Source of the DNA: an uncultured Ignavibacteriales bacterium
Lineage (GTDB): Bacteria > Bacteroidota > Ignavibacteria > Ignavibacteriales > Ignavibacteriaceae
Direction: 5' to 3'
DNA length: 64,000 nt
Assembly: GCA_963749485.1 (NCBI GenBank)
Contig: CAVVMV010000006.1
Span: 38,435 to 102,434 of the forward strand
The position numbers are program-made. Below, piece after piece: positions 41,001 through 53,000 of this stretch. Positions within the stretch are counted from its first letter, which is position 1. Every line of letters begins with the position of its first letter.

Positions 41001-44000
41001 AATATTTCCATCTGATAAATCAACTGCTTCGTTAATTATACACTTGCGGAATATTTAACTGAACTTTCTGTTTCTCTTCGCTTTTATTTAAAACAACCAA
41101 TACTCTCTCATTCATATCCGATCTAATATATGCGTAGCAATGATCGTCTGCTATCAATGTAAAAAAATCTCCTTGTCTTAGCGCAGAGTGATTTTTTCTA
41201 AAATGAGTGAGTTTACTTATCTCTTTTAAATTTTCTTTTTCATAGTATACTAAGATCATTACCAAAGCGCATCATTCTCCTGTTGTCAGGATCTGCAGCG
41301 CCTGTCATTCCTATTTCGTCACCGTAATAAATTATCGGGACACCTGGTATAGTTAATAGATAAGCCATATGAAGCTGCAGTTTTTTATAACTTGATGGAT
41401 GATCAACTTGTGGCGGATCTGTCCATCCCAGCTCCTTTGCCATGTTGCTGTTTATTTCTATATCACCATCTGCATAAGCCATGTACCTAATTTTATCGTG
41501 GCTATCCATTATATTAGCCATCAAATGATTAACGCCATATACAGAAAAAGTTTTTTGCATTTGCAGATCTAAAAGTTCAAAAGAATTATCAGGATTTAGA
41601 AACACTGGCAGCGCCACATCATATAAATTAAAATTAAACTGTGAGCTTAATTGTCCGTTGTTTACATACGAACTTATTAAATCGATTCCACCGAAAGTTT
41701 CCCCCACCTGGTACACATTTTTTCCGCCTGGTATTTCAATTTCTTGTATTATTTTTTTTGTTAGATTTCTCCAGAATTTATTTGGCACATGCTTTACGGC
41801 ATCGTGCCTGAAACCATCTGCACCCGTTTCTTTCAACCACCACACCGCATTTTCTGTCATCACATTTAGTGCCTCTTCCGAGCCTTCGTAATCAAATGAG
41901 GGCATATAGGGCTCGAACCAAGTTGTTAATCTCTGCTCATCAAATAATCTAAGATTTTTTCTCCCATCCGGTAATTCCAGAACACCAAACCAATCTCTGT
42001 GTTCTTCCCAGAAAGGATGTTCTTCGTGAATATGATTGGCAATATAATCGAGCAGCACATTCACCCCGTGATTATGAGCAGTTTCCACAAACTTTTTAGC
42101 TAACTGCATATCACCAAAATGATCTTCCACTCCTGTAGCAGAAACCGGCCAGTAACCATGATACCCTGTAAAATATCTGTGTGGGGGTGGAAATTCCTGG
42201 TAGGCAATATTGGTGTTATCAACAATTGGAGATATCCAGAATGTATTAACACCAAGTGAATCAAAATATCCTTCTTCAAGTTTATCGATTATTCCCTGGA
42301 GATCGCCACCCTGATAATTTGCTTTAATGGATAATTCCGGATGTACTACCGGATTATTATTTGTAGTGTCACCATCATTAAACCGGTCGATCATAATTGA
42401 ATAGATAATTGCATCACTCCAGTTGCTAAACGGCTCTTTCCCCATTGGCAATCCATTTTCCAACCTAACAGTCTGAAAGTTAGTAGCTTTACCATTTTTT
42501 GATACAGCTACACGAATAACCTTGTTGCCTTTCAGTTCATCCTTATTAATTGATAAACCTTATCTTGCTCTCTTCAAGTTTTATGTTCTCAGGATTTATT
42601 TTGAAGTTATCTATTAAGGCAACAATATTTTTTTTCGTAATTAGATCTTTAGTAACACTTTCATAGTAAAAATTATACGAGAATGTTTTTTCTTCTTCTT
42701 TGTAATTTAATAGATGAAGATAGTGGTTATCAGAAACTGATTTTGCTATTACCAGAACCGAATTGAAATCACCCATTCCGTTAGGCACATTTTCAGGATT
42801 TAAAGGGTCAATTAATTCAGCGCCGTCAACAAAAAATTTATATTCGTACCTGCCGGGATCAAGGGGAACAGAAATATTATATATTCCGTCACCATCTTCA
42901 TCTTTCATAGGAAGATTTTCTCTGTCCCACCCGTTGAACTGACCAAATAGATTTACCCTTTCTGGTGATCCTTCAGGTTTGTAAGTAAAAGAGTATTCCT
43001 TTTTGAGATCAAGTTTGACCGGAAGCTCATAAGTCTTGCCTGAAAGATCAAAAGAAATTAAATCTAACCCGCTGAAGTTGTTAAGAGCTGTGATCTCCAC
43101 TGTATTTTCAATATCATCAACCTGTATATTGAAGTTCTTGTTTGGAACAAAATTCACATCATATTTATCTGCATAGAACAGGTCGCTCAGGGTTAGTATT
43201 GCAGTGGTTCCTTGCTTTATAGTTACAGGTTTAATTAAATCGGTAATAGTACTTTGCTGTTGTTGTGTACAACTAAAAGTTATTAAGGCAAGCACAAACG
43301 TTAATATTTTTTCTGATTTCATATCGTCTTAAATTGATTTGAAAGAATTACAGTTAAAGGTGAAAATAAATTAAAGATAAAAAGATTAATTGCCAATCTC
43401 GTTTTATTTAAATTAATGATGTAAAAAGTTAGTTATCAATTTTTGTAAATCATCAAACATATTTTTTCACAACTATTTTTTTTTGAGAAATGTTTTCATA
43501 AATTGTTATCAGATAATGTGAAATACACTCAGAGGAAGTTCAAGAATATGGTCGATGAAGAGGATCTGTCACTTAAAATTGATTGCGAGAAGTTTTTTAT
43601 ATTGCGATTAAGAATGTAAATTATTTGTGTGAGGGATATTATTGGTTCTTAAAACTATTTAATAAATAACTAACTGTTCAGCTCTACTTAATATGAATTG
43701 AGATAATTATAGTCTAAACAGAGTTATGCTGGTAATAGTATTATACAGTTTTAAACTTAATTGTTCTTACATAACATTTTCTGATTTTATCCATTTTGAA
43801 AAGCTCATTAACCGGCTTTTTGATGTTAGTGCATCAAGCATAAGAAGGAGCAAAATATGAAAAGATTTTTACTAATTATTCTCTCTGTTTTTCTGGTATC
43901 ACAAAGTATAACTTTTGCCGGGACAAAGGGGAAAATAGCCGGTAGAATAACTGATGCTATATCCGGCGAACCGCTCCCATTTGTAAATGTAATAGTTATG

Positions 44001-50000: not shown

Positions 50001-53000
50001 AGAAGTTAGATTCACTTATATTCCTCCCGGATCCAAAATATCAATTTTTACGGTTAGAGGTGAATTAGTTAAAACACTTTACAGCGAGAGCTTATATGTT
50101 GGTGATGTTTTCTGGAATTTAAGAAGCGAAGAAAATATAGATGTAGCTTACGGCATATACGTTTATGTAGTAGAAGCACCAAATATAGGTAACAAGATTG
50201 GGAAGTTAGCCCTAATTAAATAGCGGAGAATTTTTTATGAAAAAGTTTTTATTCATTTTTTTAATTTCGGTTAGTTGTTTAATGAGCCAATCTAAAATTG
50301 GTTCATCTGCGGCTCCCTTTTTGAATATAGCCATTGGACCACGCGCTGTATCAATGGGAGGCACATTCATCGCAACAGCTAGTGATGTCAGTGCTCTCTA
50401 CTGGAATCCTGCAGGAGCTTCCAGAACCGAAACGAACGAGGCAATGTTCTCATATTCAAAATGGTTTGCAGATATAAATTATAATTGGGCTGGTGCAATG
50501 CTGAATCTCGGAGGAGCAGGAACGATTGGATTGAGTGTTACTTATCTTGACTACGGTGACATAGAAGTTACAACTTTAGCCGAGCAGGATGGTACCGGGC
50601 AGTTCTTTACTGCCACTGATATGTCTTTAGGTCTTACATATGCTTACAATCTAACCGATAGGTTCTCAATTGGAGGTAATGTTAAATATATTCAACAAAA
50701 AATCTGGAATTCATCTGCGAGTTCTATCGCAATCGATCTCGGAGTTCTCTTTCTTTCAGATATCTATGGATTGAGAATTGGTGCTACAATTACAAACTTT
50801 GGCGGTACAATGAGCATGGATGGTAAAGATTTACTTGTTCAGCACGATATTGATCCTAACAGCAATGGAAATAACGATCAAATACTTGCAAAACTCCAAA
50901 CTGATGAATTTCCGCTTCCTCTTACCTTTAAAATTGGATTGGCAATGGATTTAGTAGACTTTGAAAACCACAGATTTACTCTTGCTGCCGATGCCTTGCA
51001 CCCAAATGATAATAGTGAATCAGTTAATGTTGGTGCAGAATATATGTTTTACAATGTAATTGCCTTCAGGGTTGGTTATAAATCATTGTTTTTGGATAAT
51101 AGTGAAGAGGGTCTCACAGCCGGTGTTGGTCTTAATTATAATTTTACTAATGAGCTTGGAATACGTTTTGACTATGCTTATCAGAGTTTTGGCATTTTAG
51201 ACAATACACAGCATTTTTCGCTGGGTATAAAATTTTGACCGTTTTTAATGTATTTTTTTAATTAAAATTATGTTTATATTTCTTCCTGATAATACAGATT
51301 AAATCAATTATCTCACAAATCAAAATAGGAGAATTCTATGAAAAAATTACTTTACATTTCATTTCTACTTTTACTGGCTGGCATTACTTTTGCCCAGCCA
51401 AAGACATTCTCATAAACTGGGAATGCAATATGGAGATTGAAATCCTTTCCGGTAGATTTAATCACTGCACGATACTGTTGCAGCTCAGGGGTAACTTTAA
51501 TGGTTGGGGTCGCCATGATTTAGTACAAAATCCATTGGATCCTAATTCTTATGTAAGTGCAGAACAAGATACAATTTTACAAGCTAGTGTAGGTGATACC
51601 ATCCTTGCTTATAAATTTTTCTACACACCCAATACATGGGAAGGTGGAAATGACAAATTGTACATTTTAACTCAGGATGATTATGATGATGGTGAAGCTA
51701 CAGTTTCAAGACCATTTAATGATGGAACCTTAGCTACCGTTACAAACCAACCAACCGACGTCCTATTCCAGATTGACTGTAATGATGCAATTTCTGCTAT
51801 AAATACTCTGCCATTTCCTGTGGTTAATACAGTTCATATAGCCGGTGGTACTTCACCGTTACAATGGCCCAACTTAGGTTGGCCGGATGGTGAAATAGGT
51901 TTAATGATACCGACGTTCGATGATGGTACGAATGGTGATAAAACTGCGGGTGATTTAGTATTCACAGCTACAGTTACTTTTCCGGCTTATACCACTTTTA
52001 ATGTACAATATAAATTTGGTATAAATTACGGTGACGCAGCTAATAACGGCGGCGGTAATGATAATGAAAATGCTATTGGTGCAAATCACGAGATTAACCT
52101 TTTCTCAAGTGCTTATTATGCTGAAGTTTTAGATACATTTGGCATAATGGGTCCTCAGGATTTTACAGTGGACGTAAAGGATATTACCCAAACATTACCA
52201 ACAGCTTATTCTCTTAACCAGAATTATCCGAATCCATTCAATCCATCAACGATAATTAATTTCAGCATTCCTAATGAGGGATTTGTAACTTTAAGTGTTT
52301 ACAACTCCATTGGGCAGCAAGTTGCTACATTAGTTAACGAAAGTAAACCTGCTGGAACTTACCAGGTTGATTTCATTGCCGAGGGTCTAACTAGCGGTAT
52401 TTATTTCTACCAGATTACTTCAGGCAACTTTAGTGAAACTAAGAAAATGATGTTATTGAAATAATCCCCTGGATTATGTTCAGTAAGAATTGAAGCCCTG
52501 CATTTTGCGGGGCTTTTTTATTGTCTTAATATTTCGGTGAGTTGAATTTTAAGACTTCTCGCATTTGGAAATTCAGGATTAATCTTAATGCATTTTTCCA
52601 AAAATTCAAAAGCAACTTTATATTCTTCTTTTTGTATATGTGCACCAGCCAGGTTGTAAAAAACCTGTGCATCGGAATTATCAATCATAATACTTTGTTT
52701 AAAATATTTGATTGCCTCATCAACTTTCCCCTTTTTAAGATGATATGTTCCCAAGCCATTTAGATGTAAAAGCATCTGGGCTGTCTTTATATCTTATTTA
52801 ACAGAAATGGATATGCCAGGTCATATTCTTTTACGTTTAACAATTCAGCCGAAGCTTGATCGTAAAAAGATAATTTAAATGGATATTGTGAAGTAAGAAC
52901 ATTCATCTCTTTGGCAAAATTTAGGTAATCTTCTTTTGCAAGATACCACTCGGCTGCCTGCTTGTGTCCTATTTCCCAGTTTAGGTTTTCTACCGCAATA

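Follow-up and report, generated by a model that had tools for sequence, protein, structure and literature searches.

A four-gene module in the genome of an uncultured Ignavibacteriales bacterium brings together a TonB-dependent receptor, a large surface protein, a β-barrel of the PorV/PorQ family and an accessory type IX secretion system (T9SS) cargo. It lies in a stretch of 64,000 nucleotides (assembly GCA_963749485.1, contig CAVVMV010000006.1, positions 38,435 to 102,434), which was analysed as a whole and is called the window here; feature coordinates count from its first letter. On balance, we favour the reading that the module is one copy, probably specific for α-glucan, of a widespread three-protein core for outer-membrane uptake, which resembles a polysaccharide utilization locus (PUL) and recurs in phyla of the Fibrobacterota–Chlorobiota–Bacteroidota (FCB) group. 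This reading is carried by the domain identities, the homology of sorting domains, the order of the genes, the co-divergence of their products and the neighbourhood of carbohydrate-active enzymes (CAZymes).

The accepted model of glycan uptake in Bacteroidota is the SusC/SusD system, and the T9SS is regarded as a system for export and attachment. In the complete trios of receptor, large protein and barrel, the large protein always occupies the position directly after the receptor (the ‘SusD slot’), ends in a domain resembling type-A sorting domains, and always has the barrel as its next neighbour; we therefore propose that the three would act as a three-component glycan-uptake core. The module consists of the following features:

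43857-46667, + strand: TonB-dependent receptor gene, about 935 residues when read through 4 frameshifts
46686-50223, + strand: gene of the large surface protein (‘BIG’), 1178 residues when read through 3 frameshifts
about 47560-48226, + strand: aspartate-rich, probably calcium-binding loops of the large protein (residues ~292-513), from domain mapping to the window
about 49996-50220, + strand: T9SS-type C-terminal domain of the large protein, from domain mapping to the window
50237-51238, + strand: PorV/PorQ-family outer-membrane β-barrel gene, 333 residues, frame intact
51338-52464, + strand: accessory T9SS cargo (fourth gene), about 375 residues with one frameshift

The four genes between 43857 and 52464 are co-directional and follow each other with short gaps, as a preliminary description of this DNA, made by a model from the sequence alone, had put it; they lie on the + strand, and the gaps measure 18, 13 and 99 nt.

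Architecture of the trio proteins

The receptor comprises a signal peptide, a CarboxypepD_reg-like N-terminal extension, a ‘DEEVVVIA’ motif, a Plug and a barrel of the 22-strand type. In Pfam it matches CarbopepD_reg_2 (PF13715, 74.5 bits), PF13620 (67.1 bits), Plug (44.9 bits; gathering threshold (GA) 23.9) and OMP_b-brl_4 (PF25183, 29.4 bits), the last of which is also matched by the orthologue in the related contig L002, and TonB_dep_Rec_b-barrel (PF00593) reaches 90 bits in the orthologues of loci L053 and L007. The motif ‘LDEEVVVIATRE’, placed between CarboxypepD_reg (residues 27-115) and Plug (125-220), presumably resembles the ‘DEVVV’ TonB box of Bacteroidota. By its domain composition the protein is a genuine TonB-dependent receptor. 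The SusC/RagA model TIGR04056 (cut-off 368 bits), however, gives just 81.8 bits for the N-terminal fragment from the window and 62.3, 55.8 and 61.9 bits for the intact orthologues of L002, L053 and L007, which places the receptor outside the SusC/RagA family by profile score. The label ‘SusC-like’ of the preliminary description is thus apt for the layout, with its CarboxypepD_reg and Plug domains, and not for family membership.

The large protein was reconstructed at 1178 residues (about 130 kDa, computed), close to the 1180 noted earlier, and is acidic as had been said, with 177 D/E against 88 K/R. Its signal peptide is of the Sec type and lacks a lipobox cysteine; after it come an N-terminal β-sandwich, the aspartate-rich loops, FN3-like and further β domains, and the T9SS-type C-terminal domain. 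No informative Pfam or NCBIfam domain was found in its fragments or in 30 family members. An AlphaFold2 model of the family member P0072, built with 96 sequences (pLDDT 85.6, pTM 0.79), is all-β and begins with an N-terminal sandwich, after which come a loop-like segment rich in aspartate, FN3-like and other sandwich domains and, at residues 960-1035, a C-terminal β-sandwich. Conservation within the family is highest in this aspartate-rich segment, which contains invariant columns. The protein has these loops and no tandem repeats. Acidic repeats, with a search for ones like thrombospondin type 3, had been suggested, but Pfam TSP_3 has no match in the window fragments or the 30 family members. 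In members of the Ignavibacteria type a small β module of about 90 residues is inserted within these loops, and the Calditrichia-type members of about 1035 residues are without it.

A Por-type sorting domain had also been assigned to the large protein. Pfam and TIGRFAM models do not recognize it in any of the 30 family members, yet a profile of the last 100 residues of the window protein and 47 relatives, compared by hhalign with the sorting domains of 37 neighbouring Por_Secre_tail proteins, aligned with 97.2% probability (E 3e-11). The C-terminus is therefore, by profile–profile comparison alone, homologous to T9SS type-A sorting domains. The last residues of the family are a strongly conserved ‘...G(K/R)FAxIK’, and individual members instead match FlgD_ig (7 of 30) or CHU_C (5 of 30) weakly. 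Searching the Protein Data Bank (PDB) with the family profile returned the PorU sorting domain as sole match (E 0.23). In a whole-chain Foldseek search with the model, PorZ ranked first (E 7e-7) and PorU was found too (E 1e-4), with TM-scores of at most 0.13 to both; further echoes came from FN3 arrays and from the N-terminal sandwiches of GH94, GH116 and dextran dextrinase, with no global match. In fold and sequence the large protein is best echoed by PorZ and PorU, the two T9SS proteins known to retain their sorting domain. The large protein does not match the PorU sortase model (NF033707), and we rejected the assignment as a PorU homologue; the PorZ model NF052228 reaches 16.3 bits against a cut-off of 260, in a C-terminal fragment only. 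The family is large, with more than 838 matches in a word-indexed search, 1,683 clusters at 50% identity in an exhaustive search (E<=1e-30), and at least 581 loci in contigs from one genome per species.

For the barrel, the preliminary description had seen a 333-residue protein of the PorV/PorQ kind, and the comparison with FadL transporters supports it. The NCBIfam model NF033709 (PorV_fam) scores 242.5 bits (cut-off 90) over model positions 2-326 of 326, and 223.6 bits for the L053 orthologue; Pfam PorV reaches 45.1 bits (GA 27). An ordinary FadL transporter was considered and rejected, Toluene_X (PF03349) staying at 21.7 bits, below its GA of 29.7. All equivalog models remain under their cut-offs as well: PorQ 125.1 of 220, PorV 88.6 of 250, PorV2 75.4 of 325 and BamG 29 of 250. 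Judged by these scores, the barrel forms a subfamily of its own in the PorV/PorQ family. Its one sequence relative in the PDB is Flavobacterium johnsoniae PorV (chain 6h3i_F, E 7e-11).

Conservation and carbohydrate context of the trio

The distribution of the trio was followed with four hidden Markov models mapped on the best 80 of the at least 581 genome loci and on the related long-read-style contigs L001 and L002; lineage names are those in the record titles. The mapping gave 67 complete trios in 65 loci, and the order was receptor, large protein, barrel in 67 of 67. These loci come from Calditrichota, Ignavibacteriota/Melioribacteraceae, Marinimicrobia, WOR-3, Stahlbacteria, Gemmatimonadota, Rhodothermales and unclassified Bacteroidota metagenome-assembled genomes (MAGs). 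Among cultured carriers are Rosettibacter primus (L053, 7125-14040) and loci labelled Ignavibacterium album and Caldithrix abyssi. The median intergenic gaps within the trio are 14 and 13 nt, overlapping gene pairs are common, and the pairwise-identity matrices of the three proteins correlate with r = 0.89-0.93. The preliminary description had made its proposal depend on synteny in relatives; this synteny is present across several phyla, with the three proteins diverging together.

Some loci, from Marinimicrobia and the FCB group, hold two or three complete trios head to tail (L071, 359-14250; L074, 203-23183; L060, 6803-23108). Paralogues in such a tandem are 35-41% identical for all three proteins. 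When the tandems of L071 and L074 are compared, the three proteins of each paralogous trio find the same positional orthologue; the trio is therefore duplicated, and has diverged, as a unit.

The absence of SusD, also claimed before, extends beyond the window. The SusD Pfam family is missing from the five annotated loci (L001, L002, L083-L085); 97 flanking proteins were sampled and match 43 families, of which the 25 most frequent do not include it either, and the gene directly after the receptor encodes the large protein in all 67 complete trios. The flanking proteins themselves include GH16 (15), LacI (14), Malectin (13), GH94 (11), ABC sugar-binding protein (9), SSF symporter (6), GH3 (6), CBM_20 (5) and GH9 (3), where GH stands for glycoside hydrolase and CBM for carbohydrate-binding module. 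Immediately upstream of the receptor, a T9SS cargo with Por_Secre_tail was found in 36 of 37 cases, 21 of which carry CBM9 or CBM4_9. In the Calditrichia locus L083 the order is PUL-like: Glycoamylase, LacI, T9SS protein, receptor, large protein, barrel, GH94, a protein joining CBM30, Glycoamylase and T9SS domain, and GH2. In L084 a GH13 gene stands directly ahead of the trio. The association of the trio with carbohydrate genes is strong.

The regulators encoded upstream of the module vary between lineages: they are an extracytoplasmic function (ECF) sigma/anti-sigma pair in L002 (4911-5704), a Y_Y_Y hybrid sensor kinase with response regulators in L001 (1760-6509), or LacI in L083 (2541-3575). 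This variety echoes that of Bacteroidota PULs.

The fourth gene of the window’s module encodes a signal peptide, two diverged CBM20-like β-sandwich modules and a type-A sorting domain. Its T9SS tail, which had been recognized from the start, scores 46.8 bits with TIGR04183 (cut-off 23) and 40.6 bits with PF18962 (GA 27), and the sorting-domain match recurs in 55 of 55 orthologues; intact orthologues measure 372-377 residues. The carbohydrate-binding character of the modules, likewise part of the preliminary description, cannot be read directly, as no CBM model matches the protein or its 55 close orthologues, and it is reached through distant homologues, 8 of 10 of which exceed the threshold of CBM_20 (PF00686, GA 23.3) with 24.8-54.7 bits. 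Module 1 aligns onto the CBM_20 region of one of them, in L027 (whole-protein BLASTP E 6e-31). An AlphaFold2 model of the protein has three β modules (pLDDT 75.7) and retrieves generic Ig-like folds only in Foldseek. Comparing the family with the window’s CBM48 proteins by hhalign gave just a 20-column motif at 59% probability, and nothing with the GH13 enzyme. Calling the protein ‘CBM20-like’ is reasonable but indirect.

True orthologues of the fourth gene occur in about 10 loci only: it is a variable accessory, and the conserved unit is the trio. Longer homologues of it, encoded downstream in the WOR-3 and Stahlbacteria loci L020-L022, join CBM_20 and DUF5689 ahead of the T9SS tail. In the window, the GH13 and CBM48 genes upstream of the module (coordinates below) and the CBM20-related cargo downstream suggest α-glucan as the substrate of this copy.

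Proposed mechanism and competing explanations

In the mechanism that we propose, oligosaccharides would be imported by the TonB-dependent receptor, and the acidic, all-β, non-lipoprotein product of the SusD slot (about 130 kDa) would cross the outer membrane by the T9SS via its C-terminal sorting domain. This domain would stay uncleaved on the dedicated PorV/PorQ-family barrel, like PorZ on PorQ and PorU on PorV, and the large protein would thus be held at the surface beside the receptor as a substrate-binding or lid partner. Capture and cutting of the polymer would be left to variable T9SS-secreted CBM/GH proteins, here the CBM20-like protein. We infer the export by the T9SS, the retention of the sorting domain on the barrel, the contact with the receptor and the sugar substrate from sequence and by analogy. 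PorZ and PorU keep their sorting domains and remain bound to PorQ and PorV in the attachment complex, and porU–porV shares with the trio the order of a gene for a large protein followed by one for a barrel. A review has proposed that cognate PorV-like barrels protect retained sorting domains from cleavage (PMC10202324). SprA has been described as the FCB-specific T9SS translocon, which, of the FCB phyla surveyed, only Chlorobiota lack (PMC12611786).

Several known systems come close to the trio. With SusC/SusD (RagA/RagB) it shares a TonB transporter that carries a CarboxypepD_reg-like extension, a presumed TonB-box-like motif and a Plug, a gene for a surface partner immediately downstream, multiple diverged copies, and neighbours such as glycoside hydrolases, CBM proteins, LacI or hybrid regulators and inner-membrane sugar transporters. 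It differs in the receptor, which fails the SusC/RagA model (56-82 bits against 368), in the partner, which is an all-β protein of 1000-1200 residues that bears both a Sec signal peptide and a T9SS sorting domain whereas SusD is a TPR lipoprotein of about 60 kDa, and in the barrel, an obligatory third gene that has no counterpart in SusCD. PorQ–PorZ and PorV–PorU are similar in combining a FadL-like barrel of the PorV/PorQ family with a large multidomain protein whose sorting domain is retained and binds the barrel. Unlike PorU and PorZ, the large protein of the trio has neither a C25 peptidase domain nor PorZ-type propellers; unlike PorV, PorQ and PorV2, its barrel lies below the equivalog cut-offs; and unlike both known pairs, that of the trio is always found beside a TonB-dependent receptor gene, in CAZyme loci and in tandem multicopy.

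PorP/SprF with type-B cargos, for instance SprB–SprF, offer another parallel: a dedicated barrel gene lies directly downstream of its large cognate T9SS cargo, and the barrel has been proposed to handle and anchor this cargo specifically. In the trio, by contrast, the barrel belongs to the PorV/PorQ family, the sorting domain is type-A-like and the context is nutrient uptake, not gliding adhesins. FadL/TodX channels for hydrophobic compounds and BamG belong to the same 14-strand barrel superfamily; the trio barrel matches Toluene_X and BamG weakly, below threshold (21.7 against 29.7 and 29 against 250). For non-SusC TonB-dependent transporters of Bacteroides, non-SusD ‘lid’ lipoproteins have been described as surface partners encoded next to them (bioRxiv 10.1101/2023.03.17.533168). 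The partner in the trio differs from these lids in being, on our reading, delivered by the T9SS and presumably tethered to a barrel, and in occurring mainly outside Bacteroidia.

A literature search covering PorV, TonB-dependent receptors, FCB lineages and SusD returned no description of the trio, which is not proof of novelty, and the Caldithrix genome paper does not mention it. The trio is probably an undescribed, widely conserved architecture made of known parts, and an alternative to sugar uptake by SusC/SusD. A more specific version, which we put forward tentatively and with less confidence than the uptake core as such, would be a third glycan-uptake architecture, hitherto undescribed and used by many phyla of the FCB group other than the classical Bacteroidia, in which a TonB transporter is capped or served by a calcium-binding β-protein of about 120-130 kDa that is exported by the T9SS and permanently tethered to a barrel via its uncleaved sorting domain.

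If true, the trio would link TonB-dependent import and the T9SS, two hallmark systems, and the T9SS would be used to assemble nutrient-uptake machines. It would explain polysaccharide uptake by lineages that abound in sediments, in hot springs and in the deep ocean, and the combination of receptor, large protein and barrel would serve as a defined marker for PUL-like loci that SusD-based predictors miss. The large-protein family, at least 1,683 clusters at 50% identity, is without a Pfam model, and its cultured carriers make the idea directly testable.

Several points weigh against the uptake core. The physical complex and the tethering are proposed from gene order, homology and analogy, and the receptor might work by itself, in the manner of many non-SusC TonB-dependent transporters. 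No carbohydrate-binding family is matched by the large protein, structural comparison gives it weak matches (whole-chain TM-scores 0.1-0.2), and Por_Secre_tail is unmatched in 30 of 30 family members at E<=0.1. Correlated divergence partly reflects the shared phylogeny of the species. One locus, L056 (8144-20499) of a Rhodothermales MAG, the only one with a rearranged order, reads T9SS cargo, large protein, large protein, receptor, barrel. Moreover, frame breaks per kb are about five times as frequent in the window’s module as elsewhere in the window, an excess that could mean decay. The earlier idea of SusD-free uptake through a T9SS surface protein and a barrel withstood the three refutations named with it, namely a SusD gene at orthologous loci (in the annotated loci and the commonest flanking families), missing synteny and an ordinary FadL barrel. 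Of this idea, the genetic coupling stands; substrate capture at the receptor and tethering are further steps that we infer.

The main rival to the uptake core is co-expression without a physical complex. Here the large protein and the barrel, a T9SS cargo with its anchor, would display an adhesin, a glycan-binding scaffold or an enzyme on the surface, and the receptor would import independently, all three being co-expressed within loci for sugar use. The multiple FN3/Ig-like domains of the large protein are typical of adhesins. Dedicated barrels beside T9SS cargos are also known without a receptor, such as PorP/SprF with type-B cargos (PMC10202324). We nonetheless regard mere co-regulation as unlikely: the large-protein gene comes directly after that of the receptor in 67 of 67 trios, the frames frequently overlapping or all but touching, duplication takes all three proteins together in tandem units, and co-regulation alone would permit more rearrangement across phyla.

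The intactness of the window’s copy has to be judged separately. The preliminary description took the module genes for plain reading frames, reading across the breaks unmentioned; in fact, eight single-base frame breaks split three of the four, and the barrel gene alone is intact. In the receptor gene the breaks lie at ~45219, ~45598, ~45775 and ~45803 and leave the pieces 43857-45266, 45181-45630, 45506-45814, one short piece and 45927-46667. Those of the large protein lie at ~46695, ~47821 and ~49684: from its ATG at 46686 the frame shifts after three codons and continues in 46696-47820, 47822-49684 and 49687-50223. In the fourth gene one break at ~51407 puts the signal peptide, starting at 51338, out of frame with the body (51430-52464). 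When the intact receptor orthologue of L002, of 931 residues, was aligned by tblastn, its residues 1-931 were covered in four frames with no true nonsense codon, an apparent in-frame stop proving to be the edge of an over-extended high-scoring segment pair. With the relatives P0004, P0002 and P0016 (75-90% identical) as queries, the large protein likewise emerged as one gene with single-base interruptions, and tblastn with relatives found no genuine in-frame stop codon in any of the three broken genes.

All junctions inspected are single-base shifts at or beside short homopolymers, and protein identity to relatives is 67-90% on either side of every break. Programmed frameshifting was rejected: L002 and the window do not share the sites of their breaks, and P0004 and P0002 run uninterrupted through the window’s break points. 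The essential PBP2 gene (mrdA; 23216-25022, + strand), in a mreB-mrdA-rodA cluster, is split as well, into PBP_dimer (23216-23752) and Transpeptidase (23850-25022). Because this gene and others in the window are split likewise, and the breaks that the contigs L001 and L002 have in the same genes lie elsewhere, assembly or sequencing indel errors most likely account for the frameshifts, and the genes are probably intact in the organism.

That the module is a decaying pseudogene array here, whatever the family does elsewhere, appears improbable to us. The density of breaks would fit decay, at about 0.9 per kb in the module (8 in 8.6 kb) against roughly 0.1-0.2 per kb in the remaining window. The genes, however, show no nonsense substitutions or deletions and keep their similarity to relatives next to every break; the position of the shifts at homopolymers, the split PBP2 and the different breaks of L001 and L002 also speak against it. 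This estimate concerns only the intactness of the window’s copy and is compatible with the other readings, so that the likelihoods of the four readings weighed here need not add up to one.

Very unlikely, finally, is that the trio is secretion or attachment machinery, either an analogue of PorU–PorV or PorZ–PorQ for neighbouring cargos or a TonB-dependent barrel that exports protein, as Oar of Myxococcus does with PopC: a sorting-domain protein of about 1100 residues before a PorV/PorQ-family barrel mirrors porU–porV, the large protein weakly matches PorZ (Foldseek E 7e-7), PorU (E 1e-4) and the PorU sorting domain (E 0.23), the receptor matches OMP_b-brl_4 and T9SS cargos nearly always adjoin, but the PorU model NF033707 is unmatched, PorZ gives 16 bits against 260 in a C-terminal fragment, no Pfam domain, whether of a peptidase or of another kind, turned up in 30 family members, the receptor carries an ordinary Plug and a presumed TonB-box-like motif, as importers typically do, and the two to three diverged tandem copies per locus (L060, L071, L074) fit substrate-specific modules rather than core machinery.

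Genomic surroundings of the module

Upstream and downstream of the uptake module, the window contains the following features:

36241-37434, + strand: multihaem cytochrome (Cytochrome_C7, with weak MtrC/MtrF-like domain matches), about 6 kb upstream of the module
38721-40172 and 40178-40723, + strand: CBM48+GH13 enzyme, itself frameshifted (Pfam CBM_48 57 bits, Alpha-amylase 48 bits)
41240-42463, - strand: GH13 α-amylase (Pfam Alpha-amylase 143 bits)
42546-43322, - strand: CBM48/AMPK-type glycogen-binding protein (AMPK1_CBM 40.6 bits)
43323-43856, no strand: divergent intergenic region of 534 nt between the CBM48 gene (-) and the receptor gene (+)
52492-52516, + strand: terminator-like hairpin with an 11-bp stem and a T run behind it, 28 nt past the fourth gene
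52787-58506, - strand: three GDSL-lipase/TPR genes, tandem paralogues that converge on the module from its downstream side

GH13 enzymes had been said to flank the module. This is the case upstream, where the two enzymes (38721-40723 and 41240-42463) are joined by the CBM48 protein (42546-43322), and not downstream, where the three GDSL-lipase/TPR genes lie. GDSL/TPR genes are also found downstream of the module in the relatives L001 and L002, and their association with it may be conserved within Ignavibacteria.

The divergent region 43323-43856 is presumed to be the promoter or regulatory region. A scan for sigma-70 promoters found sites no more numerous than in shuffled sequence, promoters of the FCB group being outside its coverage. 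The hairpin at 52492-52516 is the strongest terminator-like one of the region and probably marks the end of the operon.

Other split genes in the window encode an FG-GAP repeat protein in three pieces (3827-4988, + strand), a Sel1-repeat protein (13102-14674, - strand), the CBM48+GH13 enzyme (38721-40723, + strand) and a GDSL-like protein (56934-58506, - strand). The remainder of the window is ordinary chromosome, with genes for AcrB, CTP synthase, PurH, MreB, PBP2, RodA, multihaem cytochromes and a carbamoyltransferase. The multihaem cytochrome at 36241-37434 hints at a capacity for extracellular electron transfer.

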